Assembly: GCA_027371725.1 (NCBI GenBank)
Contig: DAHXMN010000002.1
Location: 1-32,678 of the forward strand
Length of the DNA stretch: 32,678 nt
Reading direction: 5' to 3'
From: Candidatus Woesearchaeota archaeon
GTDB lineage: Archaea > Nanobdellota > Nanobdellia > Woesearchaeales > UBA525
Below are positions 5,185-30,364 of this stretch, in pieces; positions within the stretch are counted from its first letter, which is position 1, and each line of letters begins with the position of its first letter. The notes under the pieces are model-generated. The model searched no databases. It was not told the DNA's origin and was given only the letters and a program-made list of their open reading frames with translations. A program made the translations under genes and the position numbers.

Positions 5185-5206
5185 TCGTCGACGGAACGAC
5201 AGGCGC

Positions 5207-5215
5207 TTTATAAAA
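5207..5215 (-). promoter_or_regulatory. TATA box of eif2g
   Basis: TTTTATAAA on the minus strand, 23 nt upstream of ATG 5184. Confidence 0.6.
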
Positions 5216-5567: not shown

Positions 5568-5793
5568 GGCGGACGGTGTCCGCGATGCCGTTTATAAAAA
5601 CTGGGTTGAAGCCGATCAAGCACGGCGTTCCCGCGCCGCGGCCGCAGCGACGGCCATCGCAGTCTTCCTCGACGGGGAACCGAGTCTCGTAGCGATCGAA
5701 GTTGACGCCGCCTCGCCGTCCGGGCGGCGGCTGCGGCGCTCTTTGCGTCGGGAAAGATGGAAGAGAGAAGATACTGATTAAGAGGAAGAAGAG

Positions 5794-10051: not shown

Positions 10052-10074
10052 ATAGAACCGGTCAAGCGACAGGA

Positions 10075-10111
10075 TATTTAAACCTTCTTCGTTAAAATTT
10101 ACCATTAAATA
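10075..10111. promoter_or_regulatory. divergent promoter pair (lig on minus, hypothetical gene on plus)
   Basis: TATTTAAA at 10075-10082 lies 24 nt from the lig ATG 10051. ATTAAATA at 10104-10111 lies 26 nt from ATG 10137. The spacer is AT-rich. Confidence 0.55.
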
Positions 10112-10136
10112 GTAACAAAAATGAAAAGATTTATAT

Positions 10137-11228
10137 ATGTGGACCGTGATTAAGAGGGATATGACCGATGGACTCTTCAGATCCAACGCCCGAGCGATCG
10201 TCTTCAGAGACAAGAATGACGTAATCCACCCCGAAGAGGTCTTCGCACGGCTCTATGGCGGACTGGAACACGCAGTCAAACTCAATCTCCGCAACAAGGA
10301 ATCCAGAACGATAAAGGCCCCCTCGATCAGGGACGAGATATATACCGATGAAGCAAGCAAGATAATCTCCGGATGGCTCGTCAAGAACGGCCAGAACATC
10401 ACCGCAGAAATAACATATGACGACGGGAAGAGCCAGACCTATACCGTGAAGCGCAGGGAGAACTTCGACGCGAAGAGGCTGATGAAGATCCCGAACATCG
10501 TCCGGCTCCACGACGACAACGGAGGGGCGCTCGTCCTAAGAGAGGCGAGGAAACATCCTTTCGACGAGACCGTGATGATGCACGCGGCGAAGCACATCAG
10601 CGATTTCGACAAAGCAGCGAGCAAGCAATTCTACGAGGAGAACGAGAATCCCATCCGTCCAGCAAATGGAAAGAGAGCCATGCTCATCCCTGAACCGAAC
10701 CTGCTCAGCGCCCTCCAGCGAATATACAACGATGGCTTCCCACAGATAACGCCCAAGGTCAAAGCCCTCGATGCTGACGGGACAAGGCTCTGGTACGTGA
10801 GGGATTTCCTGCCCGCAGCCATAGACACGAGCCTAGGGGCGAAGGCGCTCGGCGCATATTTCGGGTCGCTGCATGCGCTCGGTCTCTTCGAGCCTGTCGA
10901 CCGCCAGTTCATCCACTATGCGCTCCAGCGAGGCATCATCGTCAATTATGATCCTGACTTCATCTGCCACACGATGAATCCCCAGAGGGTTCTGCATTCC
11001 GAACTGGGGGACATACGGGCGACCCTGACAACTGATGCCGACCTCAGAAACAACATCCCGATGGACATCGGGGAATACCAGAAGCGGCTGAAGGCGAGGA
11101 TTCACGAGGTGAGAGAGGTCCGCACACAGGAAGGGTACAACCCGGGCACGCTTTTTGATCATCTCTTGCGGAAGCCCTCGATCGAGCCATTCCCGGTTAT
11201 GGACCTCGCCGGAAGAAAATATGTTTGA
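10137..11228 (+). CDS. hypothetical protein (363 aa), compositionally atypical
   Basis: Long uninterrupted ORF. ATTAAATA at 10104-10111 lies 26 nt upstream of the ATG. Rich in ATA/AGA/AGG and A/T-ending codons, unlike its neighbours. No family recognised. Confidence 0.6.
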   Translation: MWTVIKRDMTDGLFRSNARAIVFRDKNDVIHPEEVFARLYGGLEHAVKLNLRNKESRTIKAPSIRDEIYTDEASKIISGWLVKNGQNITAEITYDDGKSQTYTVKRRENFDAKRLMKIPNIVRLHDDNGGALVLREARKHPFDETVMMHAAKHISDFDKAASKQFYEENENPIRPANGKRAMLIPEPNLLSALQRIYNDGFPQITPKVKALDADGTRLWYVRDFLPAAIDTSLGAKALGAYFGSLHALGLFEPVDRQFIHYALQRGIIVNYDPDFICHTMNPQRVLHSELGDIRATLTTDADLRNNIPMDIGEYQKRLKARIHEVREVRTQEGYNPGTLFDHLLRKPSIEPFPVMDLAGRKYV

Positions 11229-11271: not shown

Positions 11272-12327
11272 ATGGGCCTGTTCGACGAGGTTCTCGGCGC
11301 GGGGGAGTCGCTCTTCCGGAACGAGGACGCGCTGGAGTACGAGTTCCTGCCAAAACTCTTGCCGTTCCGCGAGAACGAGCAGCGCGAGCTGGCGCGGTGC
11401 GTCAGCCCCCTCTTCCAGGGCAGGAACGGGCGGAACGTCCTGATCCACGGCGCCCCGGGCATCGGGAAGAGCGCAGCCGCGAGATTCGTGCTCCGCGAGC
11501 TCGAGGAGAAGAGCGACGAGGTCGCGGTCGTCTACGTCAACTGCTGGCAGACGAACACGAGCTACAAGGTCTTCCTCGAGGTGTGCGACCAGCTCGGGTA
11601 CAAGTTCACGCAGAACAAGAACGGCACCGAGCTGATCAAGGTCATCGCGTCCATAGTCAACAAGAAGAGCGCGGTGATCGTCTTCGACGAGATCGACAAG
11701 GCGGAGGAGTTCGACTTCCTCTACTCGCTCATCGAAGAGATCTACAAGAAAGCCATCATCCTGATCACGAACTACAAGTCCTGGCTCATCGAGCTGGACG
11801 AGCGGATCAAGAGCCGGCTGACGCCGGAGCTGATCGAGTTCAAGCAGTACACGGACAAGGAGACCGCCGGGATCCTGAAGGAGCGGCAGCAGTACGCGTT
11901 CGTCCCCGGCGTCTGGGAGGAAGCGGCGTTCACGCTCGTCTGCCAGCGCGCAGCGGCGGCGAAGGACATCCGCACCGGGCTGTACCTGATGCGGCAGGCA
12001 GCGCTGAGAGCGGAGGACGCGGCCTCGAAGAAGGTGACCGAGGAGCACGTCAAGCGGGCGTTGTCCACGATGGACGAGTTCACGATCAAGAGCAGCGCCG
12101 ACCTCAACGACGAGGAGAAGTTCATCTACGAGGTCGTGAAGAAGCACGACGGGAAGAAGATCGGCGACCTGTACAACGCGTACAAGAAGGACGGCGGCCA
12201 AGCGTCGTATAAGACGTTCCAGCGGAAGATAGCGGCGCTCGACGAGGGCCGGTTCATCACGCTGGAGCGGAAGACGGGCGACGGCGGCAACACGACCATC
12301 GTCAACCGGAAGATCACGGAGTTCTAG
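11272..12327 (+). CDS. cdc6: Orc1/Cdc6 replication initiator (AAA+ with C-terminal winged helix)
   Basis: FRENEQRELA, Walker A HGAPGIGKSAAA, Walker B AVIVFDEIDK, and a C-terminal wH. TATA TATTTAAA at 11241-11248 lies 24 nt upstream of the ATG. Confidence 0.93.
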   Translation: MGLFDEVLGAGESLFRNEDALEYEFLPKLLPFRENEQRELARCVSPLFQGRNGRNVLIHGAPGIGKSAAARFVLRELEEKSDEVAVVYVNCWQTNTSYKVFLEVCDQLGYKFTQNKNGTELIKVIASIVNKKSAVIVFDEIDKAEEFDFLYSLIEEIYKKAIILITNYKSWLIELDERIKSRLTPELIEFKQYTDKETAGILKERQQYAFVPGVWEEAAFTLVCQRAAAAKDIRTGLYLMRQAALRAEDAASKKVTEEHVKRALSTMDEFTIKSSADLNDEEKFIYEVVKKHDGKKIGDLYNAYKKDGGQASYKTFQRKIAALDEGRFITLERKTGDGGNTTIVNRKITEF

Positions 12328-13374: not shown

Positions 13375-14865
13375 CTACGCGAGTGAGCCGAGCGTCGCGG
13401 CGAGGGCGGCCGCGGCCAGGAAGTAGATCGTGAGGCTCACGACGAGGAAGATCGGGAGGTTGCGGATCCCGTCCTTGACGTTGCCCTTCCGGATGACGCT
13501 CACGATGGAGGCGCTCATGATCGCGCTGACGCTGAGCATCATCACGCTGAACCAGCGGAAGTTCGTCACCATCTGCGCCGACGTCTTGATGTTGAGCTTG
13601 AGGAAGCCGTTCGATGCGCCGCCGAGGTTGAGCGAGCCGGTGATCTTCACGATGATGGTGAGGAGCGTCGTGGCGAGGGCGAAGAGCAGGGGCGCCATGA
13701 CGATCGAGGCGAAGGTGATGAAGATCGCGTACGTCGCGACGTTGGCGCTCATCTCCTTCTTGAGGATCTTCGTCTCCTGGATGTCCAGCGCGATCTTGCT
13801 GAGCAGTTCGGCGATCTCGCCGCCTGCGGCCATCCCCTCGAGCAGGATGCTGACGCTGCGCCGCAGGATGAGGGAATCGTACCGCTCAGTGAAGCGGATG
13901 AGGCTCTCGCTCAGCTCCTCGCCGGCGAGCGTCTCCTTCGCCACCTCCTCAATCTCCTTGGCGAGCACGCCGAAGTTCGGCCGGACGGCGAACCAGAGGG
14001 CGCGGTCGATGGGCATGCCCGCGCTGATGTTCGCGCTCGCGAGCTGGAGGAAGTCGGGGAGCACCTCCTCGAGCTCCTTGGTGCGGCGGTAGATCCTGAT
14101 GTCGAGGTAGACATAGATGACCATCCAGGTGAAGAGGTAGAAGAAGGCGAAGACCGCGGTCCAGACGCCGAGGTAGAAGAGGAGCAGGCCCATCGCCGGC
14201 TTCCCGGCGAGCGCAGCGAGGATGAGCGTGGAGAGCGTGAAGAGGGCGGTGACCGTGAACGCGATGTAGAAGACGGCGCGTTTCACGTCGTCCGGGTCGG
14301 CGGTGTAGCCCGCCTTGAGCAGCAGGGCGGAGAGCATGCGCTTCCGGTACTGCGCGGTGCGCCGTTCCTTGCGCTTCCGCAGGGTCTCCTGGCGCTTCAG
14401 CCTCCGCCGCGTGCGTTCCAGCGCGGCGTCGTCGGCCGCCGTGCGGCGTTCCATCTCTCTCGAATGGCCGACAGCGGCTTCCGGCCCAGGCCTCTCAGCA
14501 GGATCCGCGGAGGGTTTCTCGGCCGGCTTCCGAACGGGTTTCTTGATCGCTTCCCCGGTCGGTTTCACGACGGGCCTCTCGGCCGTCTCTTCAGCAGGTT
14601 CCTTGCTGGACGCTGCCGCACGGTCGCGGCGGAAGAGCCGAGTGAACGAAAAACGACTGCGAGGATCCTTTGAAGGAGGAGAAGGGAGGGACGGAGGAAC
14701 TGGTGAGGAAGGGGAGGGGAGGGAGGAGAGGGATTCTGGAGGCGTGGAGACGAGAGGCGCGGAAGCGCGAGAGGGCTTCTTCGGCCGAGGCTTGCGCGTC
14801 GTCACGGCCTTCTTCGCAGCCAGAGGTTCTTCCGCAGTCCGGACTCCCTTCTTCGTCGCCACCAT
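13375..14865 (-). CDS. T2SSF-domain platform protein (TadC/EpdK-like) with ~195-aa disordered N-terminal extension
   Basis: Single T2SSF-type domain (LPDFLQLASANISAGMPIDRALWFA and ILLEGMAAGGEIAELLSKIA) flanked by TM helices. The N-terminus is P/S/K/R/E-rich. I chose ATG 14865; the track start GTG 14874 is possible. Confidence 0.8.
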   Translation of the reverse strand: MVATKKGVRTAEEPLAAKKAVTTRKPRPKKPSRASAPLVSTPPESLSSLPSPSSPVPPSLPSPPSKDPRSRFSFTRLFRRDRAAASSKEPAEETAERPVVKPTGEAIKKPVRKPAEKPSADPAERPGPEAAVGHSREMERRTAADDAALERTRRRLKRQETLRKRKERRTAQYRKRMLSALLLKAGYTADPDDVKRAVFYIAFTVTALFTLSTLILAALAGKPAMGLLLFYLGVWTAVFAFFYLFTWMVIYVYLDIRIYRRTKELEEVLPDFLQLASANISAGMPIDRALWFAVRPNFGVLAKEIEEVAKETLAGEELSESLIRFTERYDSLILRRSVSILLEGMAAGGEIAELLSKIALDIQETKILKKEMSANVATYAIFITFASIVMAPLLFALATTLLTIIVKITGSLNLGGASNGFLKLNIKTSAQMVTNFRWFSVMMLSVSAIMSASIVSVIRKGNVKDGIRNLPIFLVVSLTIYFLAAAALAATLGSLA

Positions 14866-14914
14866 GAATCGCACCAGTCTACCGTGTTTAGTTATTATTC
14901 CCGTTCGTTCCTCC

Positions 14915-15709
14915 TCACATGTCCATCGGCGGTCTGCTGCTCCTGATCACCGCGAGGAACATGAATTGGATGAACCCGATGAAGAGCGCGATGAAGAGGT
15001 AGGCGAAGAGGCTGAGGTTCAGCCCGAGGAAGCTCGTCAGGACGATGAGCATGATGGTGCCGAGGCTCGGCACGATGATCGCGATCATCATGTAGAACAT
15101 CGCCATCGGGTTGAGCTTCCGGCCGTACTCCTTCACCGCGATCTGCTGCTCCCGGACGACCTGGTCGAAGACGGCGGAGAGCGCGGTCGTCACCTCGCTC
15201 CCCGTGCGCATCGAGTTGAGGAGCTGCCAGAGCATCTTCCGCAGGTCGGGGCTTGGCGTGACGATAATCATCTCATTCAGCGCGTCCTCCATCGGCGTGC
15301 CGAGGTCGACGCGCTCGACCAGCTCCTGGAAATAGATGCCGATCGTCTCGTAGTTCTTCGCGAGGTTGCGGAACGCCTGGTAGAGCGGCACGCCCGACTC
15401 GAGCTCGATGATGAGGAACCGGCCGGCGTAGACGATCTCCTTGTTGATCTCCTTGTTCAGCTTCTGGATGCGGAGGTCGACGTACCCCATGAGATAGAGG
15501 AAGGCGAGGAAGAAGACGATCGGGAAGAAGAGGAAGACGATCGGCTTCGGGATGAAGAGGAAGATGACGATGGAGAGGCCGAAAGCGAGGACGAAGCTCG
15601 TGAACGCGGTCTTCCGGACGTAATACTCCGGCGTGTCCGGCAAGCGCGCCTGGAGCAGCTTCAGCTTCAGGCCGGGGACGCTGCGCGCGATGATCTTGTA
15701 GAGCTCCAT
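14915..15709 (-). CDS. T2SSF-domain platform protein (TadB/EpdJ-like)
   Basis: Single T2SSF-type domain (YFQELVERVDLGTPMEDALNEMI and LLNSMRTGSEVTTALSAV) plus TM helices. I chose ATG 15709 with an upstream GGAGGA/GAGG; the track start GTG 15733 lacks an SD. Confidence 0.8.
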   Translation of the reverse strand: MELYKIIARSVPGLKLKLLQARLPDTPEYYVRKTAFTSFVLAFGLSIVIFLFIPKPIVFLFFPIVFFLAFLYLMGYVDLRIQKLNKEINKEIVYAGRFLIIELESGVPLYQAFRNLAKNYETIGIYFQELVERVDLGTPMEDALNEMIIVTPSPDLRKMLWQLLNSMRTGSEVTTALSAVFDQVVREQQIAVKEYGRKLNPMAMFYMMIAIIVPSLGTIMLIVLTSFLGLNLSLFAYLFIALFIGFIQFMFLAVIRSSRPPMDM

Positions 15710-15755
15710 GCGAACTGCCTCTTCCTCCGGCACGGACGGGCGCGACGTCCCGCGT

Positions 15756-17399
15756 CTACGGCGCCGGCCGCGGGGGCGCCGCGACGCCCTTCGGCTCGCC
15801 CTGCTCGCTCTCCAGGAACGGCTGGTCCGCCTTGATGAAGCGGAACAGGTTCTCCTTGTCCGTGTAATACTCTGCGATGACGCGGCCGACGGCGTCGACG
15901 GTGAAGATGCTGTGCTTCACCAGGTAGTCGATGACGCGGCGCTTCTCCGCGATCTCCGCGGCCACGTCCTTGTCGGTGAGGCCGGTGTAGAGCTTCAGCG
16001 TCTGGAGGAAGCTCCTGCTCTTGGCGACCTGGACGAGCCGGTCCTTCTTCGGGTCGTACTGGAGGATGACATTGAAGCCCGCGTTCGGGAGCGTCTCCGC
16101 AATCTGGAAGGTGCGGCGCTGGCCGCTACGCCGGTTACGGAACTGGACGATGATGAGCGAGATCGCCGGCAGCATGACCTTCGGCACCTCGATCGGCGGA
16201 TTGGTGAGACGCTCGATCGCCTCCTCCGCGGTGTTGGCGTGGAACGTCGCGTAGACGGAGTGGCCGGTGTGGATCGCTTCGAAGAGCGTCTCCGCCTCCC
16301 TCTTGCGGCGGACCTCGCCGACGATGATGCGGTCCGGCCTCATACGGAGGCTGTTGACGAGGAGGTCGCCCATGGATATCTCCCCCTTGCCCTCGGCGTT
16401 CGGCAGCCGCGTGTTGAGCGGCACCCAGTGGAGGAACCGCGGCAGTTGGATCTCGCGCGTGTCCTCAATGGAGAGGACGCGCTGGTTCGGCGGGAAGAAG
16501 TTCGCGAAGCAGTTGAGCGCGCTCGTCTTGCCGGAAGCGGTGCCGCCCGCGATGATGGCGCTCATCTCGTAGTGCATCGCCATCCAAATCCACGCGGCCG
16601 CCTCGCTGCTGATCGTGCCGTACTTGACGAGCCGGGTGATCGTCCACGGGTCGCGGCTGAACTTGCGGATGGTGATCGTGTTGCCCGCGGTGCTGATCGG
16701 CATCAGGGTCGCGTTGACGCGGTCCCCCTCGTTCAGGTGGGCGTCGAGCAACGGCTCCAAGACGCTGATCTGCCGGCCGACCTTGCGTCCGATGAGCGCG
16801 GCGTAGTGCCTGATCTGCTCCTCGTCCTTGAGGAAGACCGTCGTCTTGAGCCAGCCGTGCTTCTTGTGGTAGACCCAGACCGGCTCGTCCGACTGGTTGA
16901 TGACGATCTCCTCGAGCTGCGCGTCGTCCATGAGGAGCTCGATGTTGCCGAGGCCGAGGGAACGCGCGATGAGGTAGCTGGTGAGGAAGCCGCTCGTCTC
17001 CTCGTCGGCGTCCGGGAAGTGCTTGCGGATCAGGTCGGCGATCGTGTCGGCGAAGACGCCCTCGACCTGGCCGGTCTTCTTCGCGTCGAGGATGTCCACG
17101 ACGCCGAGGCTCACCTGCTTGATCAGCTCCTGGCGGATCTTCTCGAGCAGGAATTCGGTCGTCTTGGAGATGGAGCTGATCCGCACCTCGTAGATCGGGA
17201 CGAACTCGCCCTTCACCTTCTGGACGGTGATGATGATGGGGATGTCCTTCGACTTGTACTCGTACTGGTCGATGACCGCCTCCTTGACGGCGGCCTTCGG
17301 GTTCCGAGAATCACGGGAAGAAGCCTTGCGGACCGCTTTGCGGGGACGAGAAGAGTTCGCCTTCTTCCGCTTCACAGTAGACTTCGCGCCGCGTGCCAA
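15756..17399 (-). CDS. type IV filament assembly ATPase (FlaI/TadA/VirB11 superfamily)
   Basis: Walker A AGGTASGKTS, Asp box VLSIEDTREIQLP, Walker B PDRIIVGEVR, His box HTGHSVYATFHANT. TTG start is preceded by GAGGTGA at 7 nt. Basic ~40-aa N-terminal tail. Confidence 0.9.
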   Translation of the reverse strand: MARGAKSTVKRKKANSSRPRKAVRKASSRDSRNPKAAVKEAVIDQYEYKSKDIPIIITVQKVKGEFVPIYEVRISSISKTTEFLLEKIRQELIKQVSLGVVDILDAKKTGQVEGVFADTIADLIRKHFPDADEETSGFLTSYLIARSLGLGNIELLMDDAQLEEIVINQSDEPVWVYHKKHGWLKTTVFLKDEEQIRHYAALIGRKVGRQISVLEPLLDAHLNEGDRVNATLMPISTAGNTITIRKFSRDPWTITRLVKYGTISSEAAAWIWMAMHYEMSAIIAGGTASGKTSALNCFANFFPPNQRVLSIEDTREIQLPRFLHWVPLNTRLPNAEGKGEISMGDLLVNSLRMRPDRIIVGEVRRKREAETLFEAIHTGHSVYATFHANTAEEAIERLTNPPIEVPKVMLPAISLIIVQFRNRRSGQRRTFQIAETLPNAGFNVILQYDPKKDRLVQVAKSRSFLQTLKLYTGLTDKDVAAEIAEKRRVIDYLVKHSIFTVDAVGRVIAEYYTDKENLFRFIKADQPFLESEQGEPKGVAAPPRPAP

Positions 17400-19187: not shown

Positions 19188-22100
19188 TCAGCTGCTGTCT
19201 TCGCACGGCGACCACGTGTAGACGTGCATCGTCACCGGCTGGCCCGCGTAATAGACGACCTTGGTGAACTGGATGAGGTCCTTCATGCACCCGTTCACGC
19301 CGGTCACGTTGAGCGCCTCCTTCGTCTGATCGCCGAGACAGCAGCTGATGTAGTTGGCCGTCCCGTTCGGCACCCACTCCCCGACTGTTGCACCCTCGCA
19401 TGCCTGAGGCACGGTGGCGTTGCAGAGCTTGGTGTTGCTGCACGCGACGCTGCATCGGTCCTCCCAGTCTGCGCAGTCGCTGCAGTCGCCGTCGTTCAGC
19501 GTGAAGTTCTGCTCGACGCGGCCGGCCATGGGGAAGCGGACGTTCAGCGTCTGCGCCCGGTACCCGTCCATGCGCGCCACCACGGAGTGGTTCCCTGACG
19601 ACACGTTCGCGATCGTGTAGCCGCCGGAATAGTTCGTCAGGTTCGCGAACGCGCCGCTGATCGCGACGCTCACCGACGCGCCGTCCAACGGCGAACCGGA
19701 CGAGTCAGTCACTCGCCCGTACAAGTCGGCGACCATCGGGCACGGGCCGAGATGTTCGCAGCCGTTCTGGTCGTTGCCGTCACAGTTCGAATACCCGGGA
19801 CTGCAGTTGTACTCGCACTTCGGCGCGCTTCCCGGAGGCAGGCTGCAGTTCACGACGAGCGTGCGCGTCGTGTCGGCCGACAGGCTGACATCATCCCCCG
19901 GACACAGCGTCGAATTCGGCGGCACCGCGCCCGTGCACACGTACGGGACGCACTGCGTCAGGTTCGACGCGTTGAGATGATAATAATTCCAGCACGCGAC
20001 CGTGCAGTTCGCGGCGCAATCCCCGTACGCGAGCGTCGTCCCGGAGTCGCACGAGGCGCCGCAAGAGCCCGCCGCGCAGATATAGGCTGGCGGCCCGTTG
20101 ATGCAGATGCCGCTCGGGTCGGCGGGCGAATAGTACTGCGTCGGCTTCGCGCCGTCGCACGCGTTCGGCGTGCGCGGATCAGTCGAGTTGTACACCCACG
20201 AACACCCCGTCGTCGCCGAGCAGTTCGTGGGCGTCGTCTGCACCGAGCAGCACGACGACCCCATGGCGAGCGTCGCAGTACGATTGGAGCCCGACTGGTA
20301 CGACCTCGTCGTATCCACGGAACACTTCCCCGTCAGCGACCCCGAGAAAGAAGCGGGAACCGCGCACAGGAAGGAGGCGGTGGTGCCGGACCAAGAAGAA
20401 GCGACGAACGTGCACGACGACCCGTTCACGGAGGCGAGGATGCTGTTCACGTTCGTGACCGACGACGTGCACTTCAGCGTCACGTTCTCCCCCGGACAGA
20501 ACGACGCGTTGGCGAACGACGCCCCGGTCACCGCCACCGGACAACCGCTATCGCCATGCGGCGACGGACCCTGACCGCCACGATTCAACGTGTCATAATC
20601 CCACTGGCCGTTGCAGTTATTATCATACCCATCCGTGCACATCGTCGAACCGGACTCGCTCAGGCTCGTCGCCCACAACCAAGAAGAACCGGTATAATGG
20701 CATCGGAGCGTGGTGAGACCGCCGCATTGCCACGTCGACAACGAGCACTCATTGGCTGACGTGCACGACTGGGACTGCGGTCCGCACGAAGACGAGCTTG
20801 TGCAGACACCACTCTGACACACGGGGGAGAACTGCTCACGCGTCGCATTATTGTAATACGCATAATCATTGTATGTCTGCACGTTCGTGCACGAATCAGA
20901 CGCGCACGGCGTCGCCGGACCACACACCGTCCCGTCCGCATTGTTCTGGCACGAGCCGCCGGAGCACGTCTGGCACACGCCACACGACCCGCAGCTACCA
21001 CCGCAACCGTCAGGACCGCACGTCTTCCCCGCGCAGTTCGGCGTACATGTATTGCACGCCCCGTTGCTGCAACCATTGGGGCAATAGTTGCTCGTACTGC
21101 TCACTGCGCCGGTAGAATCACAGAAATATTCGTGGAGAGTATAGGCGTCAGAGCAGAAATCGGTGTAAGAATTGCTGCCGACAGTCACCGTCCCTTGCAA
21201 GTTGAAATTCTGGGTATACTGATCAGTCCCGTCATTGTCGGAGTCGGAACAGGTGCCGCCGCCGCTGCACGTGCCGCCACAGGTCGAGTCGTTCACGTAC
21301 GAACCGCCGGTCGTCGGAACACAACTCGAACCGCTGCAAGCATACGACACCGTACAAGCATTATTGCAATTCGACGTCGTATAAGAACCGGAAGCATCAA
21401 CAGCGCACAAACCGCCAGCACCGGAACAAGAATAATGAGTAGTGCCGCCGCTGCACGTGCCGCCGCTGCACGTGCCGCTCGAACAATACGTTCCATAACC
21501 ACAAGAAGTGCCGCAAGAATCATTATACTGGTTGCCGCAAGCATAACTGGAGGCGGACAAGGATGAACAAGGCGTGGAGGGAGTCGGCGTGCAGGTGTTC
21601 GCGGAAGGCGACCAGGCGCTGGCGTTGCAGACCTGTGCAAGGCTTCCCTGGCAGTTGCCTGAGCCGCAGGTGATGGTCTGTTCAAGCTGTTTGGGAGTCG
21701 TCAGGTTCCAGGTCGCATAGATTACACTAATCTTATTTGGGTCAGCCTTCGCGTTTTGGCATTCTGTCGTGGAAGTGCTGACATATTTGTACTTGAAATT
21801 TGTACCGCTCTTATCGAGCTTGAATTTGCAGGAGGCGGGCAACCCGCCGGACGCGGGTATCCATTTCATGTATGTGTTGTAACTGTGACCGTTTTGCATC
21901 GTATTGACGCTGAAGCACTTGGTCTTGCCGATGCTAGCGAAGGTGTAGCAGACAGTAAACGGAGGAGCGCCGGCGTTAACGGCCACATCATTCGCGATTT
22001 GCGTCGTGGGGACCAGGATCCCGTCGACCACCCCGTCGCAGTTGTCATCGACGCCGTTGCATGTTTCCTGGTTGTCGTTCGAGTATTGACAGTAGCTGTA

Positions 22101-22403
22101 GCCATCGCCATCAGCTACGCAAGAACCGGTCAGGCAAGGCTTCGGGGGGTTTGTGCAGTCGCTATCTGATGTGCAAGAGACATTATCGTAGTAGTAGAAA
22201 CCGCAAACAGGCGCGAACTGGTAAAGGACGCAGTTGCCGGAGATGTCCGTCTGTTCGCAATACCATGCGGCGCACATCGCGTGCGCCGGCTGCGGCGCAT
22301 GCAACAGGAAGAAGAACGCGAAGACGATCAAGAAGAGACCGACGAACCGGAGAGTCCCCGTCAGGAATGAATGCTTGCCCACCACGATACTCGCCTCCCT
22401 CAT
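19188..22403 (-). CDS. large secreted cysteine-rich surface protein (~1071 aa)
   Basis: Signal peptide MREASIVVGKHSFLTGTLRFVGLFLIVFAFFFLLHAPQPAHA. About 98 Cys by my count. CNGVDDNCDG and CTDGYDNNCNG metal-binding-like motifs, a CxPNCAGKTCGPDGCGGSCGSCG repeat, and a CarboxypepD_reg-like domain (LYGRVTDSSGSPLDGASVSV...GGYTIANV...). Many N-x-S/T sequons. A TATA-like box at 22433-22441 lies about 30 nt upstream of ATG 22403. Confidence 0.85.
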   Translation of the reverse strand: MREASIVVGKHSFLTGTLRFVGLFLIVFAFFFLLHAPQPAHAMCAAWYCEQTDISGNCVLYQFAPVCGFYYYDNVSCTSDSDCTNPPKPCLTGSCVADGDGYSYCQYSNDNQETCNGVDDNCDGVVDGILVPTTQIANDVAVNAGAPPFTVCYTFASIGKTKCFSVNTMQNGHSYNTYMKWIPASGGLPASCKFKLDKSGTNFKYKYVSTSTTECQNAKADPNKISVIYATWNLTTPKQLEQTITCGSGNCQGSLAQVCNASAWSPSANTCTPTPSTPCSSLSASSYACGNQYNDSCGTSCGYGTYCSSGTCSGGTCSGGTTHYSCSGAGGLCAVDASGSYTTSNCNNACTVSYACSGSSCVPTTGGSYVNDSTCGGTCSGGGTCSDSDNDGTDQYTQNFNLQGTVTVGSNSYTDFCSDAYTLHEYFCDSTGAVSSTSNYCPNGCSNGACNTCTPNCAGKTCGPDGCGGSCGSCGVCQTCSGGSCQNNADGTVCGPATPCASDSCTNVQTYNDYAYYNNATREQFSPVCQSGVCTSSSSCGPQSQSCTSANECSLSTWQCGGLTTLRCHYTGSSWLWATSLSESGSTMCTDGYDNNCNGQWDYDTLNRGGQGPSPHGDSGCPVAVTGASFANASFCPGENVTLKCTSSVTNVNSILASVNGSSCTFVASSWSGTTASFLCAVPASFSGSLTGKCSVDTTRSYQSGSNRTATLAMGSSCCSVQTTPTNCSATTGCSWVYNSTDPRTPNACDGAKPTQYYSPADPSGICINGPPAYICAAGSCGASCDSGTTLAYGDCAANCTVACWNYYHLNASNLTQCVPYVCTGAVPPNSTLCPGDDVSLSADTTRTLVVNCSLPPGSAPKCEYNCSPGYSNCDGNDQNGCEHLGPCPMVADLYGRVTDSSGSPLDGASVSVAISGAFANLTNYSGGYTIANVSSGNHSVVARMDGYRAQTLNVRFPMAGRVEQNFTLNDGDCSDCADWEDRCSVACSNTKLCNATVPQACEGATVGEWVPNGTANYISCCLGDQTKEALNVTGVNGCMKDLIQFTKVVYYAGQPVTMHVYTWSPCEDSS

Positions 22404-22432
22404 GACCGTGAAGAGCACCCTGAAGACCATTG

Positions 22433-22441
22433 TTTTTAAAT
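22433..22441 (-). promoter_or_regulatory. TATA box of the Cys-rich surface protein gene
   Basis: ATTTAAAAA on the minus strand, about 30 nt upstream of ATG 22403 and only 3 nt from the alternative ATG 22430, which it therefore excludes. Confidence 0.55.
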
Positions 22442-22474
22442 GTTGTGTCGAGCGCGGGAAAAAGCGGGCCGCGT

Positions 22475-22804
22475 TCAGAACCGCACGAGGTCGCCTTTCT
22501 TGAGTGAGAGCAGGCCTGCTTTCGTCTCGATCGCGTAAGAGAAGCGGGCTCGCGGCCGGTATGCGGCGAAGGGGCGGAAAGAGCATTTCGCGTCGACGAC
22601 GCGCTTCCGTTCGTCGAGAAAATAGACGTCGATTGTCCAGAAGACGAAGAGCATGTGGAACCCGACGTTGACCTCGCGGCCGAAGTCGAAGACGTACGCG
22701 ACGCCGTCCCGCGGCTTGCGGAACATCAGGCCCCAGCCCTGCGTCCACCCGTTCCGGAAGAAGATGAGGGCGGGCGTCCTGCCACGCGTGTCGGTGAGGA
22801 CCAT
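22475..22804 (-). CDS. DUF192 family protein
   Basis: GWGLMFRKPRDGVAYVFDF and FHMLFVFWTIDVYFLDERKRVV fit the DUF192/COG1430 pattern. ATG 22804 has a weak TATA (ATAAAAAC) upstream. The track ORF's 74-aa extension was rejected. Confidence 0.7.
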   Translation of the reverse strand: MVLTDTRGRTPALIFFRNGWTQGWGLMFRKPRDGVAYVFDFGREVNVGFHMLFVFWTIDVYFLDERKRVVDAKCSFRPFAAYRPRARFSYAIETKAGLLSLKKGDLVRF

Positions 22805-23114
22805 GATTGTCCTGGCGGAAGGGCGGTTTTTATGGTTTGTGATTGCGCCTCTGCCGCGGATTCGCTCCGCGGTCTTGCCGGCTGCTCGCGTCTCGCTGTG
22901 CTGATTGAGAGACCTCCTCCCCGTAGGTCCTCGGTAGCGGGACGCTACCGGGACCACGGCGAGCCTCGTGCTCGCCTGTGGGGGCAACCCCCCGTCGGCC
23001 TTCGCCGTTCTTTTCTTCACGCTCACCCTTTGGCCGGCGAGACATCATCCGCGATGAATCCTCGCTCGAAGAAGGGAGGCGGGACGCTGCATCTGTCGAG
23101 GGCGGCTGTTCCGC

Positions 23115-24095
23115 TCAGCAGATGGTCGCGTTGAGCTTGCTGAGGCCGTAGTCATGCGCCGGGTCGTCGTAGTGCGTCGCGTCCAGCTTGAACCAGGAGG
23201 GGAGCGGGCTTCCCTCCGTCGGGCAGTAGAGCGTCGCGTTCCGTCCGGAGAAGTAGTACGCGTCCACGGTGGAGCGGTCGGTGTAGACCGGGAGCCCTTG
23301 CGCGTTGAGGTCGTCGAGATTGATGATCGAGGCGATGCCGTACTTCGACGTGCCGTTCAGGTCGCCCTGGAGGCGTTGGAGGTAGCTCGGCGCGTACGGG
23401 TCTTCGCGGTAGTAGCCCTGCTGGATCTCGTCGTCCAGGTTCGCGGTGTTGTTCCCCGTGACGAGGTCGGAATTGTTGTAGGGGCTCTCCCGGATCGTGT
23501 TCGGCAGCTTGCCGTCGGTGGAGACGCTGTACGCCGGGTCGCGGAGGTCGAGGATCGAGACCTCCGTGGTGAACCATTTCTGGTAGTCCCAGCGGGCGAG
23601 TCCGCGCGTGTCCGTCACGTTGACGGTCATGAGGAACGAGACGTCGATGCTCCATGGCGTCGATTGGTTGAGCGCGATGTCCTGCACGGTGACGTTGAGC
23701 GCGATCCCCTGCTGCCGCGCCTCGTCGTTGACGCGGCCGAGGTAGTCGCCGAAGGTGCTGTTCGTGAGGATGTCGTACGGCTGCCCGTCGACCGTGCCGT
23801 TCATGAACGCCTCGATGAAGAGCGGCGTCGCGTTCGTGACGTACACGCCTTCCTGACTGGTGTACTGCTCGATCGCGATCAGGCTGCGGAAGCCCGCGAT
23901 GTACGTCGCCCGCGGCACGTCGCCGTGGAAGTCGCTCAGGAAGTCGCTCATCGCCTGGATGCGGGTGACGACGCTCCGGCTCCGCTCCTCGCCCGTCGGA
24001 AGGGTCCGCGCGTACATGATGGCGAGGAGGATGGCGACGATGAGGAGCGCGGAGATGAGGTAGACGACGCCCCGCCGTCCGGGAAACGCGGTCAT
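23115..24095 (-). CDS. prepilin-like (pseudopilin) protein, 326 aa
   Basis: MTAFPGRRG|VVYLISALLIVAILLAIMY, then an N-glycosylation-sequon-rich extracellular domain. ATG 24095 overlaps the upstream stop (ATGA). The 997-aa track ORF is a composite running out of frame through the VWA gene. Confidence 0.75.
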   Translation of the reverse strand: MTAFPGRRGVVYLISALLIVAILLAIMYARTLPTGEERSRSVVTRIQAMSDFLSDFHGDVPRATYIAGFRSLIAIEQYTSQEGVYVTNATPLFIEAFMNGTVDGQPYDILTNSTFGDYLGRVNDEARQQGIALNVTVQDIALNQSTPWSIDVSFLMTVNVTDTRGLARWDYQKWFTTEVSILDLRDPAYSVSTDGKLPNTIRESPYNNSDLVTGNNTANLDDEIQQGYYREDPYAPSYLQRLQGDLNGTSKYGIASIINLDDLNAQGLPVYTDRSTVDAYYFSGRNATLYCPTEGSPLPSWFKLDATHYDDPAHDYGLSKLNATIC

Positions 24096-26791
24096 CGGTC
24101 CACCTCCAGCGCCGCTTCCGTCGGTCCCCAGAGGTAGGGCACCTGCTGGACGAGCGTCACGATGATCTCGAGGTCCTGCTGGTCGAGGTTGACGAAGACG
24201 CGGCCGTCGCCGTTCAGGTCGAGCTGCTGGAGGATGTGGTAGACGCCGTAGTCGTACGCGTCGTTCGGGTCGTAGCTGCCCGTGCCGTGGCTCGCGTTCG
24301 TGTACGTGCAGTTCTTCGCGCCCGTGTAGGTCGAGGGGATGGAGAAGTTGAGGAAGTGGCCGTCCTCGAACTCCACTTCCCAGTTGCACCCTTCCGTCGT
24401 CGAGAGGACGGCGCTCCGGGGGATGGTGCTGTTGATCATGCCCGTGTAGATGATGGAGTTGTTGCCGCTGCAGTTCGTCGCGTTCCCCGAGTTGTCGGCG
24501 ATCATCATCCTGATCGTGTTGTTCGTCCCGTTGAGGAGCGCGGCGGGGATGGCGACGAGGAACGGGTCGCCGAGCGTGACGAAGTCGGCGTTGTAGTCGC
24601 TCAGGTTGTAGACCGGCTGGCCGTTGACCGAGAGGAAGGTCGTCCAGTACGGGCCGGAATAGCTCGTCACTGCTGCGTCGGTGATCCTGAGGCCGGGCGG
24701 GATGGCGAGCGTCGTCGTGCAGTTCGCGAACTGCGGCGTCTCGAACTTCACCTGGATCTCGTTCGGCGACGGCGGCGTGACGATGGGGGTGTAGTTGAAG
24801 CTGAGCGTGCTGCCCGCGAGGAGGTGGCTCGGGGCGTAGCTTCCGTTGATGACGAGCGTCTGCGCGGAGAAGTTCGCGATGAGGAGTATCTGGTCGCTGA
24901 TGTTCTGGTATATCTGTTCCAGCTGCGAGACGTTCGTCGCGTCGTAATAGAGGGAGGAGTTGCACGCGACCTGCTGCAGCAGCGTCTTGTTCGCGTCGGC
25001 GCCGAAGCCGATGGTGAAGACGGTGATGTTGTAGTTGTCGCACGCGTTCTGGCCGGCGTCGATGGTGGACTGCGGCGCGCCGGCGGTGTCGGCGGTGCCG
25101 GCGTAGTCGTCGAAGTTGTCGCAGCGGTAGTTCGGCTGTCCGTCGGTCATCACTATCATGAACCGCTTGTTCACGGAGCCATTGAGCATGTTCTTGGCGC
25201 GGTTGATGCCGCAGCAGATGCACGTGCCGCCGTTCGCGGTGTAGCCGTCGATCTGCGTGCCGAGCGCCGCCTGGTCGGTGGTGAGGTCCATCGCGTTCGT
25301 CACCTGGTCGTTGAAGCTGTCGAGGCCGACGCGGTCGCCCGAGACGTTGAGGATGATGGACGCGGCGAGCTTGTCCGCGGACTGCGCGATCTGGAGCTTG
25401 GTCCGGTTGCAGATCGTCGCGGTCGGCGTGGAGTAGCTGCCGGCCGTCCAGCCGGGGTTGCAGGCGCCGCACTCCTGGTTGCTGCAGCTCCCCGGGTAGG
25501 CGCACTGCAGGTAGTAGGAGAAGAACCACCAGCTGCACTTGTACTTGCAGAGCAGGCCGGTGTAGTTCTCGCCGCAGTCGCCCATGCTGCCGGAGACGTC
25601 GGTGACGAGCGTCGTGTCCGCCGGCTGCCCCGCCTGGACGAACGTGACGTTGGTGAAGTTCGTCGTGCCGAGGCGGAGCGGGATCGTCGCCGGCGCCCAG
25701 GAGAGGTTGTGCGCCTCGAGGATGATGTTCTGGGTCGCGTTGCTGCCCGGGCTGCTGAAGACCGTCTGGTTGCCGATCCTGAGGAAGACGGTGTAGTTGC
25801 TGTCGTACGAGAGGTTGAGGTACCAGTCGGTGATGATGCCTGGCGCGTAGAACGAGTCGTACAGGTTGATGATCCCGTCGATCTGCGGGAAGGCGTACTG
25901 GCCCCAGCCGGTCGGCGTCGTCGAGTCCTGGAACGCGTCGGTGAGGTAGCTGAGCTTGAGGTAGCCGCCGGCCACGTAGGAGTCGGCGAGCGCTCCCCGC
26001 TCGACGAGGGTGATATTGTTCATGCCGGGGACGATGTCCCCCTTGCAGCCGGTGAGGTTCCACGCCTGCACGGTCATCAGCGTGGCGTCGCTGGTGAGCG
26101 TCGTGCACGCCGCGCCGTTGACGAGGAGGTCGAAATCAGCGACGGTGTCGAGCTGCGCGGTGATGTCCGTGATCGCGGTCGCGTTGACGTCCGAGGGGAC
26201 GGGGCCGAGCTGCACGGTGATGTTGCCCTGGCCGGTGAAGCCGCCGAAGTACGCGATGACAAAGCTCTTCTTGTCCCTGATCCGCTTCAGGTAGGCGGTG
26301 CTGGTGCTGCCGGAGAGCGCCTCTCCCTGCTGGATGCCGGTGATCATGCGCTGCGCCGCCGCCCGTTCGCCGATGGCGCCGCTCCGGTTCTGCTGGAACA
26401 GCGCATCCCCGCCCATGCTGAGCGTGACGCCGACATCGCCGGGAAGGAGGCCCTGGAGCGCGTCGCGGCTGAGGTTGACGGCGAGCCCGGTCTGGTTCGT
26501 CGCCCAGAGGTCGCCGATCGCCTGGAGGACGGACACGGAAGGGTCGGGGATGGTGCCGTTGCTGACAAGCTGCTGGGCGAGCGTGCTGTTGAGATCGCCC
26601 GCCCTGATCGTCGAGAGAGCGAGGAGCGCATCCTGGGCGTAGTGGCTCGTCTGCGTGAACGGCGGCGCTTCCGCACGGAAATGGAGCGCGACGACCAGGG
26701 CGGCGAAGAGGAGGAGGCTGGCGAGGAGCGCGTCGAGCGTGAAGAGGATGGCCCGCCGGCCGCCGTGCCCTGTCCTCGCGTTCGTGGTCAT
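24092..26791 (-). CDS. prepilin-like N-terminus + von Willebrand factor A domain protein, 899 aa (TadG-like architecture)
   Basis: N-terminus GHGGRRAILFTLDALLASLLLFAALVVAL. MIDAS LVTDVSGSMGD, RFMIVMTDGQPNY and ITVFTIGFGADAN. A Cys-rich insert follows the MIDAS motif. Many sequons. GGTG SD upstream. Confidence 0.85.
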   Translation of the reverse strand: MTTNARTGHGGRRAILFTLDALLASLLLFAALVVALHFRAEAPPFTQTSHYAQDALLALSTIRAGDLNSTLAQQLVSNGTIPDPSVSVLQAIGDLWATNQTGLAVNLSRDALQGLLPGDVGVTLSMGGDALFQQNRSGAIGERAAAQRMITGIQQGEALSGSTSTAYLKRIRDKKSFVIAYFGGFTGQGNITVQLGPVPSDVNATAITDITAQLDTVADFDLLVNGAACTTLTSDATLMTVQAWNLTGCKGDIVPGMNNITLVERGALADSYVAGGYLKLSYLTDAFQDSTTPTGWGQYAFPQIDGIINLYDSFYAPGIITDWYLNLSYDSNYTVFLRIGNQTVFSSPGSNATQNIILEAHNLSWAPATIPLRLGTTNFTNVTFVQAGQPADTTLVTDVSGSMGDCGENYTGLLCKYKCSWWFFSYYLQCAYPGSCSNQECGACNPGWTAGSYSTPTATICNRTKLQIAQSADKLAASIILNVSGDRVGLDSFNDQVTNAMDLTTDQAALGTQIDGYTANGGTCICCGINRAKNMLNGSVNKRFMIVMTDGQPNYRCDNFDDYAGTADTAGAPQSTIDAGQNACDNYNITVFTIGFGADANKTLLQQVACNSSLYYDATNVSQLEQIYQNISDQILLIANFSAQTLVINGSYAPSHLLAGSTLSFNYTPIVTPPSPNEIQVKFETPQFANCTTTLAIPPGLRITDAAVTSYSGPYWTTFLSVNGQPVYNLSDYNADFVTLGDPFLVAIPAALLNGTNNTIRMMIADNSGNATNCSGNNSIIYTGMINSTIPRSAVLSTTEGCNWEVEFEDGHFLNFSIPSTYTGAKNCTYTNASHGTGSYDPNDAYDYGVYHILQQLDLNGDGRVFVNLDQQDLEIIVTLVQQVPYLWGPTEAALEVDR

Positions 26792-28557: not shown

Positions 28558-29031
28558 TCAGCCCTCCGTCACGTTGACCCGGCCGTCCGGGAGGGCGGTG
28601 ACGACGAGCGTGTGCGGCCCCTTCGTGATGCCGACCGAGCCGGTGAGATTGGCGGCGCTCCACCCGTTCTGGTCGTAGTCGCCGTGGGACGAGGAGACAG
28701 TGAACGTGACCGACGTCCCTTGGAACGAGACGGACTCCACATCGGCCGGGAGGTCGACGGTGATGGTGCGTGAGCTCGGCGCGCCGAGGTAGTAGACCGT
28801 GTCCGCGGCGTCGACGATCTGCGTGGCCGCCCGCTCGATCGAGGCGCTCGTCACCTGGTCCTGGAGCTGCGCCGTCTGGGTGAAGTAGAGGATGATCAGC
28901 GGCAGGGCGAGGAGGAGCGCGAAGCCCATGACGAAGAGGTACTCCATCGAGACCTGTCCGCGGCAGGAGAGCGGACGGCGGACGCGGAAGGGCGCGCTGC
29001 GTTGCCGACGGAGAAGCCCACCTCTTTCCAT
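28558..29031 (-). CDS. minor pilin-like protein (class III signal peptide), 157 aa
   Basis: ...RPLSCRG|QVSMEYLFVMGFALLLALPLIILYF. TATA TATTTAAA at 29054-29061 lies 23 nt upstream of ATG 29031. The pre-cleavage segment is unusually long (26 aa), so the true start could be internal and non-ATG. Confidence 0.75.
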   Translation of the reverse strand: MERGGLLRRQRSAPFRVRRPLSCRGQVSMEYLFVMGFALLLALPLIILYFTQTAQLQDQVTSASIERAATQIVDAADTVYYLGAPSSRTITVDLPADVESVSFQGTSVTFTVSSSHGDYDQNGWSAANLTGSVGITKGPHTLVVTALPDGRVNVTEG

Positions 29032-29587: not shown

Positions 29588-30364
29588 TCACTCCCTCGCG
29601 AACGCGACCGCGCCACCATCGGTCCGCTTGACGATCGCTTCCGCGGCGGCGACCGCCCGGTCGAGGACCGCTTCGGCCTCCTTGTACTCCTCGGCAGTCA
29701 CCTCGACCTTGTAGCCGCCGCTGCCGAGATAACGGATCAAGACGCGCTTGTCGGTCTGCTCCGCGGCGGCGAGCGCCGCCTTCACCTTGTCGACGCCGTC
29801 CTCCGCGTACGTGGAGAGGGAGAGCGTGCCGCTGATCGTGACGGACTTCGGCTTGATCTTGTCGACGACGCGCGCGATGAGGGGCTCGAGGTATTCCGTC
29901 GGGATGGCGAGCGAGCGGAGGTCGCCTTCGCCGTCGACGTGCTCCTGGAACGCCATGTGGATGTACTCGTACTGCTCGAGGATCGGCTTCGCGATGGCGT
30001 CGTACAGCTTCTTCGGCTCGATCTTGAGCTCGGCGGCCATGTTCTCGATGATCTTCTCGGCCTTCTGCTCCTGCTTGATCAGCATGTTCTTCTCGCGGCG
30101 CTGGTTCTCATTGGCGCGGCGGAGGGAGAGGTCGATGTGGCCGCGCTCCTCGTTGATGCGGAGGACCTTGCAGACGATCTTCTTGTTCTCGACGACATAG
30201 TCGCGGATGTTCCTGATGCGGCCGGGCGCGACCTCGGAGATGTGGATCATGCCGCTCTTGCCGTACTCGTCGAGCACGCAGAACACGGAGTTGTACTGGA
30301 CGCCGGTCACGGTGCACATGACCAGCTCGTTCTCCTCCGGGTAGCCGTCCTTGTGGTAAAACAT
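29588..30364 (-). CDS. eif2a: translation initiation factor aIF2 alpha
   Basis: S1 domain ELVMCTVTGVQYNSVFCVLDEYGKSGMIHISEVAPGRIRNIRDY and RGHIDLSLRR. TATA 30388-30395 lies 24 nt upstream of the ATG. Confidence 0.92.
   Translation of the reverse strand: MFYHKDGYPEENELVMCTVTGVQYNSVFCVLDEYGKSGMIHISEVAPGRIRNIRDYVVENKKIVCKVLRINEERGHIDLSLRRANENQRREKNMLIKQEQKAEKIIENMAAELKIEPKKLYDAIAKPILEQYEYIHMAFQEHVDGEGDLRSLAIPTEYLEPLIARVVDKIKPKSVTISGTLSLSTYAEDGVDKVKAALAAAEQTDKRVLIRYLGSGGYKVEVTAEEYKEAEAVLDRAVAAAEAIVKRTDGGAVAFARE

Follow-up and report, generated by a model that had tools for sequence, protein, structure and literature searches.

We analysed a 32,678-nucleotide stretch of contig DAHXMN010000002.1 (assembly GCA_027371725.1, Candidatus Woesearchaeota archaeon), hereafter the window, and focused on a minus-strand gene whose 899-aa product carries a von Willebrand factor A (VWA) domain. 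We refer to them as the VWA gene and the VWA protein. A first-pass annotation, made by a model from the letters alone, had singled out this protein for its pilin-like N-terminus and for a cysteine-rich insertion immediately after the first motif of its MIDAS (metal ion-dependent adhesion site). The open reading frame, its VWA domain and every motif quoted for it were recovered, with LVTDVSGSMGD at aa 395-405, GGTCICCGINR at aa 521-531, FMIVMTDGQPNY at aa 544-555 and VFTIGFGADAN at aa 591-601. Table 1 collects the coordinates of the gene, the parts of its product and the neighbouring pilus genes.

Table 1. Positions in the window of the VWA gene, the parts of its product and the surrounding pilus genes. 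A slash marks a predicted cleavage site.
Feature	Residues	Positions	Strand	Evidence or remark
VWA gene, whole	899 aa	24092..26791	(-)	ATG start; putative class-III-signal VWA-domain pilus subunit
Class-III (prepilin-type) signal-like N-terminus	aa 1-37	26681..26791	(-)	MTTNARTGHGGRRA/ILFTLDALLASLLLFAALVVAL
N-terminal ectodomain	aa 45-385	25637..26659	(-)	Short helical bundle, then 2 beta-sandwich (jelly-roll-like) domains, as modelled
VWA strand β1 and first MIDAS loop	aa 391-403	25583..25621	(-)	ADTTLVTDVSGSM; D398, S400, S402
Cys-rich insert ('arm')	aa 404-463	25403..25582	(-)	Between DxSxS loop and helix α1
Remaining VWA domain (α1 to α7)	aa 464-640	24872..25402	(-)	Pfam VWA, profile-PDB, Foldseek
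GGTCICCG	aa 521-528	25208..25231	(-)	MIDAS Thr523, then directly C524-x-x-C527
MTDG	aa 548-551	25139..25150	(-)	End of β4 with MIDAS Asp550
C-terminal beta-rich domain(s)	aa 641-899	24095..24871	(-)	Secondary structure of the AlphaFold2 model
DxDxDG-type loop in C-terminal domain	aa 858-869	24185-24220	(-)	Weak EF-hand_5 match
Pilin-like gene 1 (DUF7289-like)		28558..29031	(-)	...RG/QVSMEYLFVMGFALLLA; Pfam DUF7289 E 1.4e-4, below cut-off; start codon uncertain
Pilin-like gene 2 (DUF7266-like)	130 aa	28162..28554	(-)	MARA/AQIAVEFSFMVML; Pfam DUF7266 E 1.7e-4
Pilin-like gene 3 (DUF7287 + DUF7408)	381 aa	26884..28029	(-)	MTRTRAARRG/QVWTFDYTVGFLL; Pfam
Pilin-like gene 5	326 aa	23115..24095	(-)	MTAFPGRRG/VVYLISALLIV; directly downstream of VWA gene
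DUF192 (COG1430) gene		22475-23026	(-)	Directly after the fifth pilin-like gene
Coiled-coil (SMC-like) cytoplasmic protein	417 aa	17888..19141	(-)	Weak SMC-type matches; upstream of ATPase gene
Type IV filament assembly ATPase (FlaI/PilB/TadA family)		15756..17399	(-)	Pfam T2SSE 2e-32; NCBIfam FlaI-like 5e-80, below equivalog cut-off
TadC/PilC-type platform gene, first		14915-15733	(-)	Pfam T2SSF (2e-17 and 7e-14 for the two genes)
TadC/PilC-type platform gene, second		13375-14874	(-)	Pfam T2SSF (2e-17 and 7e-14 for the two genes)

The AlphaFold2 (AF2) model of the VWA protein, built from a 59-sequence alignment, has a mean predicted local distance difference test (pLDDT) score of 86.7. It begins with a helix at aa 19-37 and a weak linker, continues with four short helices at aa 49-112 and beta-sandwich domains at aa 121-377, and then reaches the VWA domain (aa 391-640) and the beta-rich C-terminal domains. 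The N-terminal ectodomain has a pLDDT mostly between 85 and 97 in the AF2 models, and a separate model of aa 15-390 has a pLDDT of 84.7. By Foldseek, this separate model matches BcsB carbohydrate-binding domains, PNGase F and GH2 sugar-binding domains with probabilities of ~1 and template modelling (TM) scores of only 0.15-0.27. Such low-TM matches support a beta-sandwich, sugar-binding-like N-terminal region, as modelled, and point to no specific family.

Neither the N-terminal nor the C-terminal region has a Pfam or NCBIfam assignment, and a Pfam scan of both at E ≤ 10 returned only insignificant matches to DUF7288 (N-terminal, E 0.24), EF-hand_5 and CUB_2. The protein carries 39 N-x-S/T sequons, compared to 11.0 ± 2.9 in 2000 shuffled sequences (maximum 21), and this 3.5-fold excess is as expected for an archaeal surface glycoprotein. 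The flanks of the VWA domain had been described as unassigned, beta-rich and full of sequons, and the searches, models and counts agree with that description. Within the C-terminal domain, the DxDxDG-type loop has the family consensus D-F-D-x-D-G-K-I-D. D858 is present in 117 of the 129 aligned homologues on which all conservation, loop-form and cysteine counts in this text are based, and the VWA protein has Phe at the position of many relatives' last Asp. We liken this loop to the EF-hand-like Ca site that PilY1 has in its C-terminal domain.

The MIDAS and its cysteine-rich arm

The Pfam VWA profile (PF00092) matches the protein with 53.7 bits against a cut-off of 23.8 (E 3.9e-14), aligning aa 467-629 to profile positions 19-173. 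β1 and the DxSxS motif, which make up the 18 profile positions before that, fall outside this match because the insert splits them off. The MIDAS set is nevertheless complete, and its residues are kept across the homologues (D398 in 125, S400 in 123, S402 in 126, T523 in 122 and D550 in 127). S400, S402, T523 and D550 align with S206, S208, T291 and D319 of PilB (S171, S173, T256 and D284 in PDB-chain numbering), and D398 aligns with the first Asp, PilB D204. In PilB, these five residues are crystallographic metal ligands, and a D319A mutant loses the metal (PMC8179133).

Searching all PDB sequences with a profile of 59 full-length homologues retrieved Mfa5 (6.5e-16), the BatA-like protein 4rck (6.5e-13), PilB (5.4e-8) and also mussel PTMP1; a single-sequence PDB search with the VWA protein returned one marginal VWA match only. 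The VWA region (aa 390-640) is modelled at a pLDDT of ~90, and its Foldseek matches in the PDB include ITIH1, Mfa5, PilB, SpaC, LapA-vWFA, the anthrax-toxin receptors (ANTXR) and RrgA, with a probability of 1.0 and target-normalised TM scores of up to 0.85. The model thus points to the presence of an α/β Rossmann-like VWA fold. By sequence profile and by fold, the closest solved relatives are VWA domains borne by pili or adhesins.

The MIDAS Thr is immediately followed by C524-x-x-C527, whose two cysteines occur in 118 homologues each and co-occur perfectly (r = 1.00). They stand at the N-terminus of a helix that spans aa 525-537 in the AF2 model, and the motif could be either a structural disulfide or a redox-active CxxC. 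Another cysteine, C557, lies just past the MIDAS Asp loop and is kept in 124 homologues.

The insert comprises aa 404-463, and alignment with the solved VWA relatives places it between the first MIDAS loop and α1. In the printed alignments, the gap from DxSxSM to α1 is 60 residues in the VWA protein, compared to ~2 in Mfa5 and ~12-14 in 4rck and PilB. The cysteine segment is lacking at that position in all three, and the earlier view that it lies outside the canonical VWA fold is upheld. The first-pass annotation had named two outcomes that would count against its proposal, and we found the opposite of each: the MIDAS is conserved in the homologues, and the segment is not common to the characterised VWA families.

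The insert contains eight cysteines (406, 415, 419, 430, 436, 441, 444 and 461) in 60 aa, compared to 12 in the other 839 aa of the protein (binomial P = 2e-6). The insertion itself had been correctly recognised as cysteine-rich; the count of seven holds for aa 406-448 (CGEN...NPGW), the stretch then quoted, and leaves out C461. That stretch occupies DNA positions 25448-25576, 3 nt away from the figures originally assigned to it (25451-25579). In the AF2 model, the insert forms four strands (406-421, 424-431, 449-454 and 457-464) at a pLDDT of ~86-92 and runs straight into α1 (465-480). Apart from its cysteines, it is the least conserved region of the protein, with a mean pairwise identity of 21%, whereas the VWA core reaches 43% and β1 with the DxSxS motif 71%.

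Across the homologues, the loop occurs in several discrete forms. The long form (53-99 aa) is present in 63 of the 129 and has an even number of cysteines (6, 8, 10, 12 or 14) in 58 of these 63 (P ~ 8e-13). The short form has ~25 aa and a single cysteine that corresponds to C441 (kept in 121 of the 129), usually together with an α1 cysteine at column 471. A few homologues have a nearly absent loop, for example P0071 with 9 aa. Thus, the survey of cysteine conservation that had been called for reveals an even-numbered set of cysteines in most long forms and, in most of the remaining homologues, the short one-cysteine loop. In the homologue P0009, the cysteine-rich arm is tandemly duplicated (99 aa, 12 Cys). 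On a crude neighbour-joining tree of the 129 homologues, we counted ~10 changes of loop-length state, with the long form making up one large clade and several small ones. Consequently, the loop is evolutionarily labile, and the insert is a clade-specific form of it.

The cysteines covary in pairs. Within the insert, C415 and C436 covary with r = 0.97, C444 never occurs without C419, and C406 and C471 exclude each other (r = -0.84). Beyond the insert, the pairs C229/C249, C691/C774, C802/C828 and C524/C527 covary with r = 0.97-1.00 (691/774 and 802/828 at r = 1.00), and the cysteine count of the mature protein is even in 110 of the 129 homologues. This parity and pairwise covariation fit putative disulfide partners and not a zinc knuckle. 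A zinc-ribbon reading of the insert was rejected, as C419 and C444 are lost together. We also rejected an origin of the insert from a neighbouring protein with 98 cysteines, to which only composition-driven matches were obtained, with composition correction switched off.

The family is widespread. A word-index search returned 86 homologues, and those with names are called 'VWA domain-containing protein' in Woesearchaeota, Nanoarchaeota, Pacearchaeota, Parvarchaeota, Aenigmarchaeota and Altiarchaeales. An exhaustive profile search returned 908 cluster representatives at E ≤ 1e-30, and a scan with one genome for each GTDB species found relatives in at least 370 genomes; most of the 80 loci listed are labelled DPANN. 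The best relative among the loci listed is 96% identical and comes from 'Ca. Woesearchaeota archaeon A_NAN_12', and the window sequence itself occurs in mine-drainage metagenomes. In the literature searched, we found no description of this family.

Seven long variants were scanned against Pfam, and relatives of 1150-1500 aa (P0069, P0081, P0084 and others) were found to carry a Laminin_G_3 or DUF2341 domain nested in the VWA domain. These lectin-type domains are located between the MIDAS-Thr helix and strand β4, which constitutes a second insertion site. Different binding modules can therefore be mounted on the VWA domain, which serves as their scaffold.

The pilin-like N-terminus and the surrounding operon

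The VWA protein starts with a charged stretch, a [K/R][G/A] motif and a hydrophobic helix (GGRRA/ILFTLDALLASLLLFAALVVAL, with the slash at the putative cleavage site). Across the family, the N-terminal consensus consists of [K/R][G/A], then x-x-F-[S/T]-x-D-A and the hydrophobic helix, with D20 kept in at least 90% of the homologues. A strict class-III regular expression matches 91 of the 129; as the others visibly share the motif, conservation was read by alignment column instead. Judging from the models, the pilin-like part of the protein would be the extreme N-terminus only, with the next ~340 aa folding as helices and jelly-roll sandwiches. Paralogy of the N-terminus with the neighbouring 381-aa pilin-like protein was considered and rejected, as no similarity was found.

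Every gene from 29190 to 13375 lies on the minus strand, and the VWA gene is the fourth in this operon. The pilin-like proteins share one N-terminal layout: charged residues come first, then [K/R][G/A], then a hydrophobic helix that has its acidic residue near position +5 or +6. The homologue of pilin-like gene 2 in locus L001 has a weak Class_IIIsignal match; an NCBIfam scan of the VWA protein and all four pilin-like neighbours returned nothing. By its size, the product of gene 2 is a candidate major pilin. The products of pilin-like genes 3 and 5 are also rich in sequons (11 each, compared to 2 and 2.9 expected). The stop codon of the VWA gene and the start of pilin-like gene 5 (24095) overlap by four bases (ATGA, 24092-24095), which suggests that the two genes are translationally coupled.

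We compared the window's proteins by tblastn with 84 related loci. Almost all loci, across DPANN archaea, share one order: three to four pilin-like genes, the VWA gene, a pilin-like gene, the coiled-coil gene, the ATPase gene and two TadC-like genes, with DUF192 in some. Many of the loci end at a contig edge, and the numbers of loci with each gene are to be read with this in mind (pilin-like gene 5, directly downstream, 71; gene 1, upstream, 66; gene 2, 53; gene 3, 52; ATPase, 56; coiled-coil gene, 47; TadC-like genes, 46 and 43). A Parvarchaeota locus keeps the pilin-VWA block and has no adjacent ATPase gene.

From 29190 to 13375, the locus has one ATPase, two platform genes and at least five class-III proteins. 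In the archaeal classification, the 'clade 1' (Epd-type) pilus is composed in this way (PMC4858521). The same clade is termed 'system 1' in a 2026 preprint, in which subsystem 4A of some DPANN also has two platform genes (bioRxiv 10.64898/2026.04.22.720090). By gene content, the pilus machinery of the window is like 'clade 1 / system 1'.

Several further genes lie in or next to the operon. The DUF192 gene follows the fifth pilin-like gene in 22 of the 84 related loci. The coiled-coil protein has a possible N-terminal helix-turn-helix, no sequons and no cysteines, and may be an uncharacterised cytoplasmic component of the pilus machine. Between the DUF192 and coiled-coil genes, and so inside the operon, lies a gene (19188-22748, minus strand) for a very large secreted protein with 98 cysteines, a CarboxypepD_reg domain and a weak MopE-like metal-binding motif. 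As listed, its open reading frame overlaps that of DUF192, and its true start is therefore probably M107 or M116 (near 22430 or 22403), before a signal peptide. By tblastn, no relatives other than the two closest (L005 and L006) have the 98-Cys protein at this position, and a third match, in L048, lies upstream of the operon; the gene looks like a lineage-specific insertion. The window also contains housekeeping genes for eIF2 gamma (3670-5619, minus strand), an ATP-dependent DNA ligase (8288-10213, minus), Orc1/Cdc6 (11272-12327, plus) and eIF2 alpha (29588-30364, minus), which mark the organism as an archaeon, and its G+C content is ~53-69%. This archaeon is of a Woesearchaeota-like DPANN type, tiny and probably dependent on a host.

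Proposed role of the VWA protein

We favour, as the probable though by no means assured reading, that the VWA protein is a modular, pilin-like tip or minor subunit of a DPANN type IV pilus that binds a ligand through its MIDAS and carries a disulfide-braced, variable arm flanking that site. We infer the tip location, the disulfides and the ligand. The class-III signal and the hydrophobic N-terminal helix would send the protein through the pilin pathway, and it would most likely join its four pilin-like neighbours in a priming or tip complex. Bulky modular pilins such as PilB have been argued to end up at the pilus tip (PMC8179133). The exposed part would be a stalk of jelly-roll domains that bears the VWA domain. 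By analogy with PilB, RrgA and integrin I-domains, an acidic group on the ligand could complete the coordination of a divalent cation in the MIDAS; the ligand could be a host-cell surface protein or glycan, or a substratum.

The β1-α1 loop is the first MIDAS loop, an invariant of VWA topology. Because the insert exits one residue past the DxSxSM loop and re-enters at α1, the arm would, from this topology alone, have to sit on the MIDAS face. The arm would most likely be four-stranded and locked by three to four disulfides, and its variable non-cysteine surface would shape ligand specificity. The nested lectin-type domains of the longer relatives are as expected for a ligand-binding scaffold. 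The cross-links would also make the arm more robust, mechanically and chemically, in the oxidising habitat of mine drainage. The cysteine-dependent mechanics of the PilY1 vWA domain provide a precedent for a role that is mechanical or redox in kind (PMC8806160).

Several results weigh against this proposal. The VWA protein has no match to Pfam Class_IIIsignal (PF04021), even at E ≤ 10, and no prepilin peptidase (peptidase A24 match) was found among the window's open reading frames that were scanned. In the Foldseek search with the aa 15-390 model, the region after the N-terminal helix matches no pilin fold; the initial label 'pilin-like' therefore fits the class-III N-terminus and the pilus operon, and does not extend to the region that follows. 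Around half of the family lacks the long arm, so that the core function of the family does not require it. Finally, the VWA gene and its homologue in the 96%-identical relative L005 differ at 75 synonymous and 40 non-synonymous codons overall, and the arm has no excess of these changes (3 of 40 differences), so that there is no hypervariability at the strain level.

Alternatively, the VWA protein could be mainly an assembly, priming or anchoring component, whose VWA domain makes protein-protein contacts within the machine and is not an adhesin. This would agree with the fixed position of the gene among four pilin-like genes, with its translational coupling, and with core domains that are conserved across DPANN while only loops vary. 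Bacterial counterparts lend it further weight, as loss of CpaL lowers piliation (PMC12607857) and Makarova et al. cite a proposal in which TadG serves as the membrane anchor of the pilus (PMC4858521). However, priming does not compete with tip adhesion: the complex of minor pilins and PilY1 that primes the pilus ends at its tip (as summarised in PMC12607857). The sequon load, the variable loops on the MIDAS side and the relatives' nested lectin domains also indicate an outward-facing, ligand-binding role. We consider a mainly assembly-related function to be unlikely.

The cysteines of the insert allow two other explanations, both of which we consider very improbable. The insert could be a metal-binding or redox module (Zn, Fe-S, or a thiol switch with C524-x-x-C527) that regulates the metal site and does more than brace an arm. 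Its one CxxC, C441-G-A-C444, and the strictly co-occurring CxxC at the helix N-terminus beside T523 speak for this, and single cysteine mutations in the PilY1 vWA domain alter force response and signalling (PMC8806160). Yet C444 is present in only 28 of the 63 long inserts and is lost with C419, which is the pattern of a disulfide pair and not of a metal knuckle, and the even cysteine counts, in the inserts and in the whole mature proteins, fit paired cystines. Moreover, prediction places the VWA protein outside the cell, its sample is from mine drainage, and it has no zinc-ribbon or similar Pfam match. The insert could instead be a tolerated, functionally neutral loop expansion in which the cysteines merely keep the fold, as the frequent switches of loop length, the nearly loopless homologues and the lack of excess divergence between near-identical strains would allow. 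Against neutrality, the cysteine scaffold persists in a large coherent clade across sequences that are only 30-40% identical, the arm has been tandemly duplicated in P0009, and a place directly on the MIDAS loop, by VWA topology, makes neutrality for ligand binding unlikely.

The proposed tip or minor subunit can be taken further. The family might be the host-capture adhesin of DPANN pili, with the disulfide-knotted, hypervariable arm on the DxSxS loop and the near-invariant C524-x-x-C527 acting as a redox- or force-sensitive gate over the timing of metal-site binding and the host surface that is bound, and with the arm type (long and cysteine-rich, short with one cysteine, or nested lectin) encoding specificity for host or substrate; we put this forward as a speculation that is quite unlikely to hold. 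Little is known of the way in which DPANN archaea find their hosts and stay attached to them, and suspicion usually falls on their pili. The VWA family, for which the sources offer the name 'VWA domain-containing protein' only, is a concrete and widespread candidate for a DPANN adhesive tip.

Comparison with known systems

Among solved proteins, PilB of Streptococcus sanguinis (PDB 7B7P) offers the same combination of a pilin-type N-terminus and a bulky VWA module; its MIDAS is functional, and the five ligands all align with those of the VWA protein; by Foldseek, it ranks fifth among the matches. Its MIDAS is flanked by protruding arms, one of which is a four-stranded beta sheet (PMC8179133). 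However, PilB is bacterial, has an N-methyl-Phe-type class III signal and has a true pilin fold before the VWA domain, whereas the VWA protein has ~340 aa of helices and jelly rolls before that domain and ~260 aa after it. The large arm of PilB follows the MIDAS Asp (β4 loop), its distance from DxSxSM to α1 is ~14 aa, and it is not cysteine-rich. Mfa5, the type V pilus tip protein of Porphyromonas gingivalis (PDB 6TNJ/6TO1), is the best solved sequence relative and a top structural match; it has a MIDAS VWA domain and serves its pilus as an accessory or tip subunit. Unlike the machinery proposed here, type V pili assemble by strand exchange, and Mfa5 enters α1 ~2 aa after DxSxSMGG and carries its ~85-aa insertion after the MIDAS Asp.

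The first-pass annotation had drawn a parallel with TadG. TadG/CpaL proteins do share a minor-pilin-like N-terminus, a MIDAS VWA domain and a pilus locus with an archaeal-related Tad-type ATPase and platform (PMC12607857). In CpaL, the VWA domain is interrupted by a beta-rich module, and the predicted place of the protein is the tip, where two other minor pilins accompany it (PMC12607857). The CpaL insert (aa 204-383), however, comes ~40 residues past the DxTxS loop, reportedly projects away from the MIDAS and is not cysteine-rich. In Pfam and NCBIfam, the VWA protein has no Tad, TadE or TadG-type N-terminal match, and its closest solved relatives are Mfa5 and PilB; the parallel is valid as one of analogues and does not extend to family membership.

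PilY1/PilC of type IVa pili is a tip-associated vWA protein that works with minor pilins, and seven of its 11 cysteines make its vWA domain cysteine-rich and govern a force-induced conformational change (PMC8806160). Unlike the VWA protein, it is not a pilin; it has a C-terminal beta-propeller (PilC family), and its cysteine positions are unrelated. No PilC/PilY1 propeller Pfam match was found in aa 641-899, apart from which only the weak EF-hand_5 match was seen, and these 259 aa would be too short for such a propeller. In the sortase-pilus tip adhesins RrgA, SpaC and GBS104, which are represented among the Foldseek matches, a MIDAS VWA domain is cradled by two inserted arms at the tip. These proteins belong to covalently polymerised Gram-positive pili with Ig-like or CnaB stalks and isopeptide bonds, and the resemblance is convergent.

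Within the Archaea, Makarova et al. proposed large tip adhesins (arCOG03508, DUF2341) for clade 1 (Epd-type) loci, with DUF2341 as a basis of the proposal (PMC4858521). The locus is of the same kind, and the longer members of the VWA family carry DUF2341 in their VWA domain. In this comparison, which is by description only, the VWA protein differs in having no DUF2341, and the relevant passages of PMC4858521 mention no VWA domain for the clade 1 proteins. ArnB-type regulators, which are cytoplasmic, are the known pilus-linked vWA proteins of Archaea (PMC4858521).

Taken together, the VWA protein is an archaeal analogue of PilB, PilY1, CpaL/TadG, RrgA and Mfa5, and not a member of those families. 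The insert, which had been put forward as something new, is absent from the solved relatives; yet the loop varies within the family and arms beside the MIDAS are already established, so that it represents a variant within the known theme of 'arms flanking the MIDAS' and not a new principle. What distinguishes the VWA protein is its DPANN setting, the β1-α1 site of its arm, the cystine-rich build of that arm, the CxxC beside the MIDAS Thr and the exchange of modules on the VWA scaffold. If the proposed role is true, the protein extends the bacterial strategy of a 'functional module grafted onto a pilin' to the Archaea.

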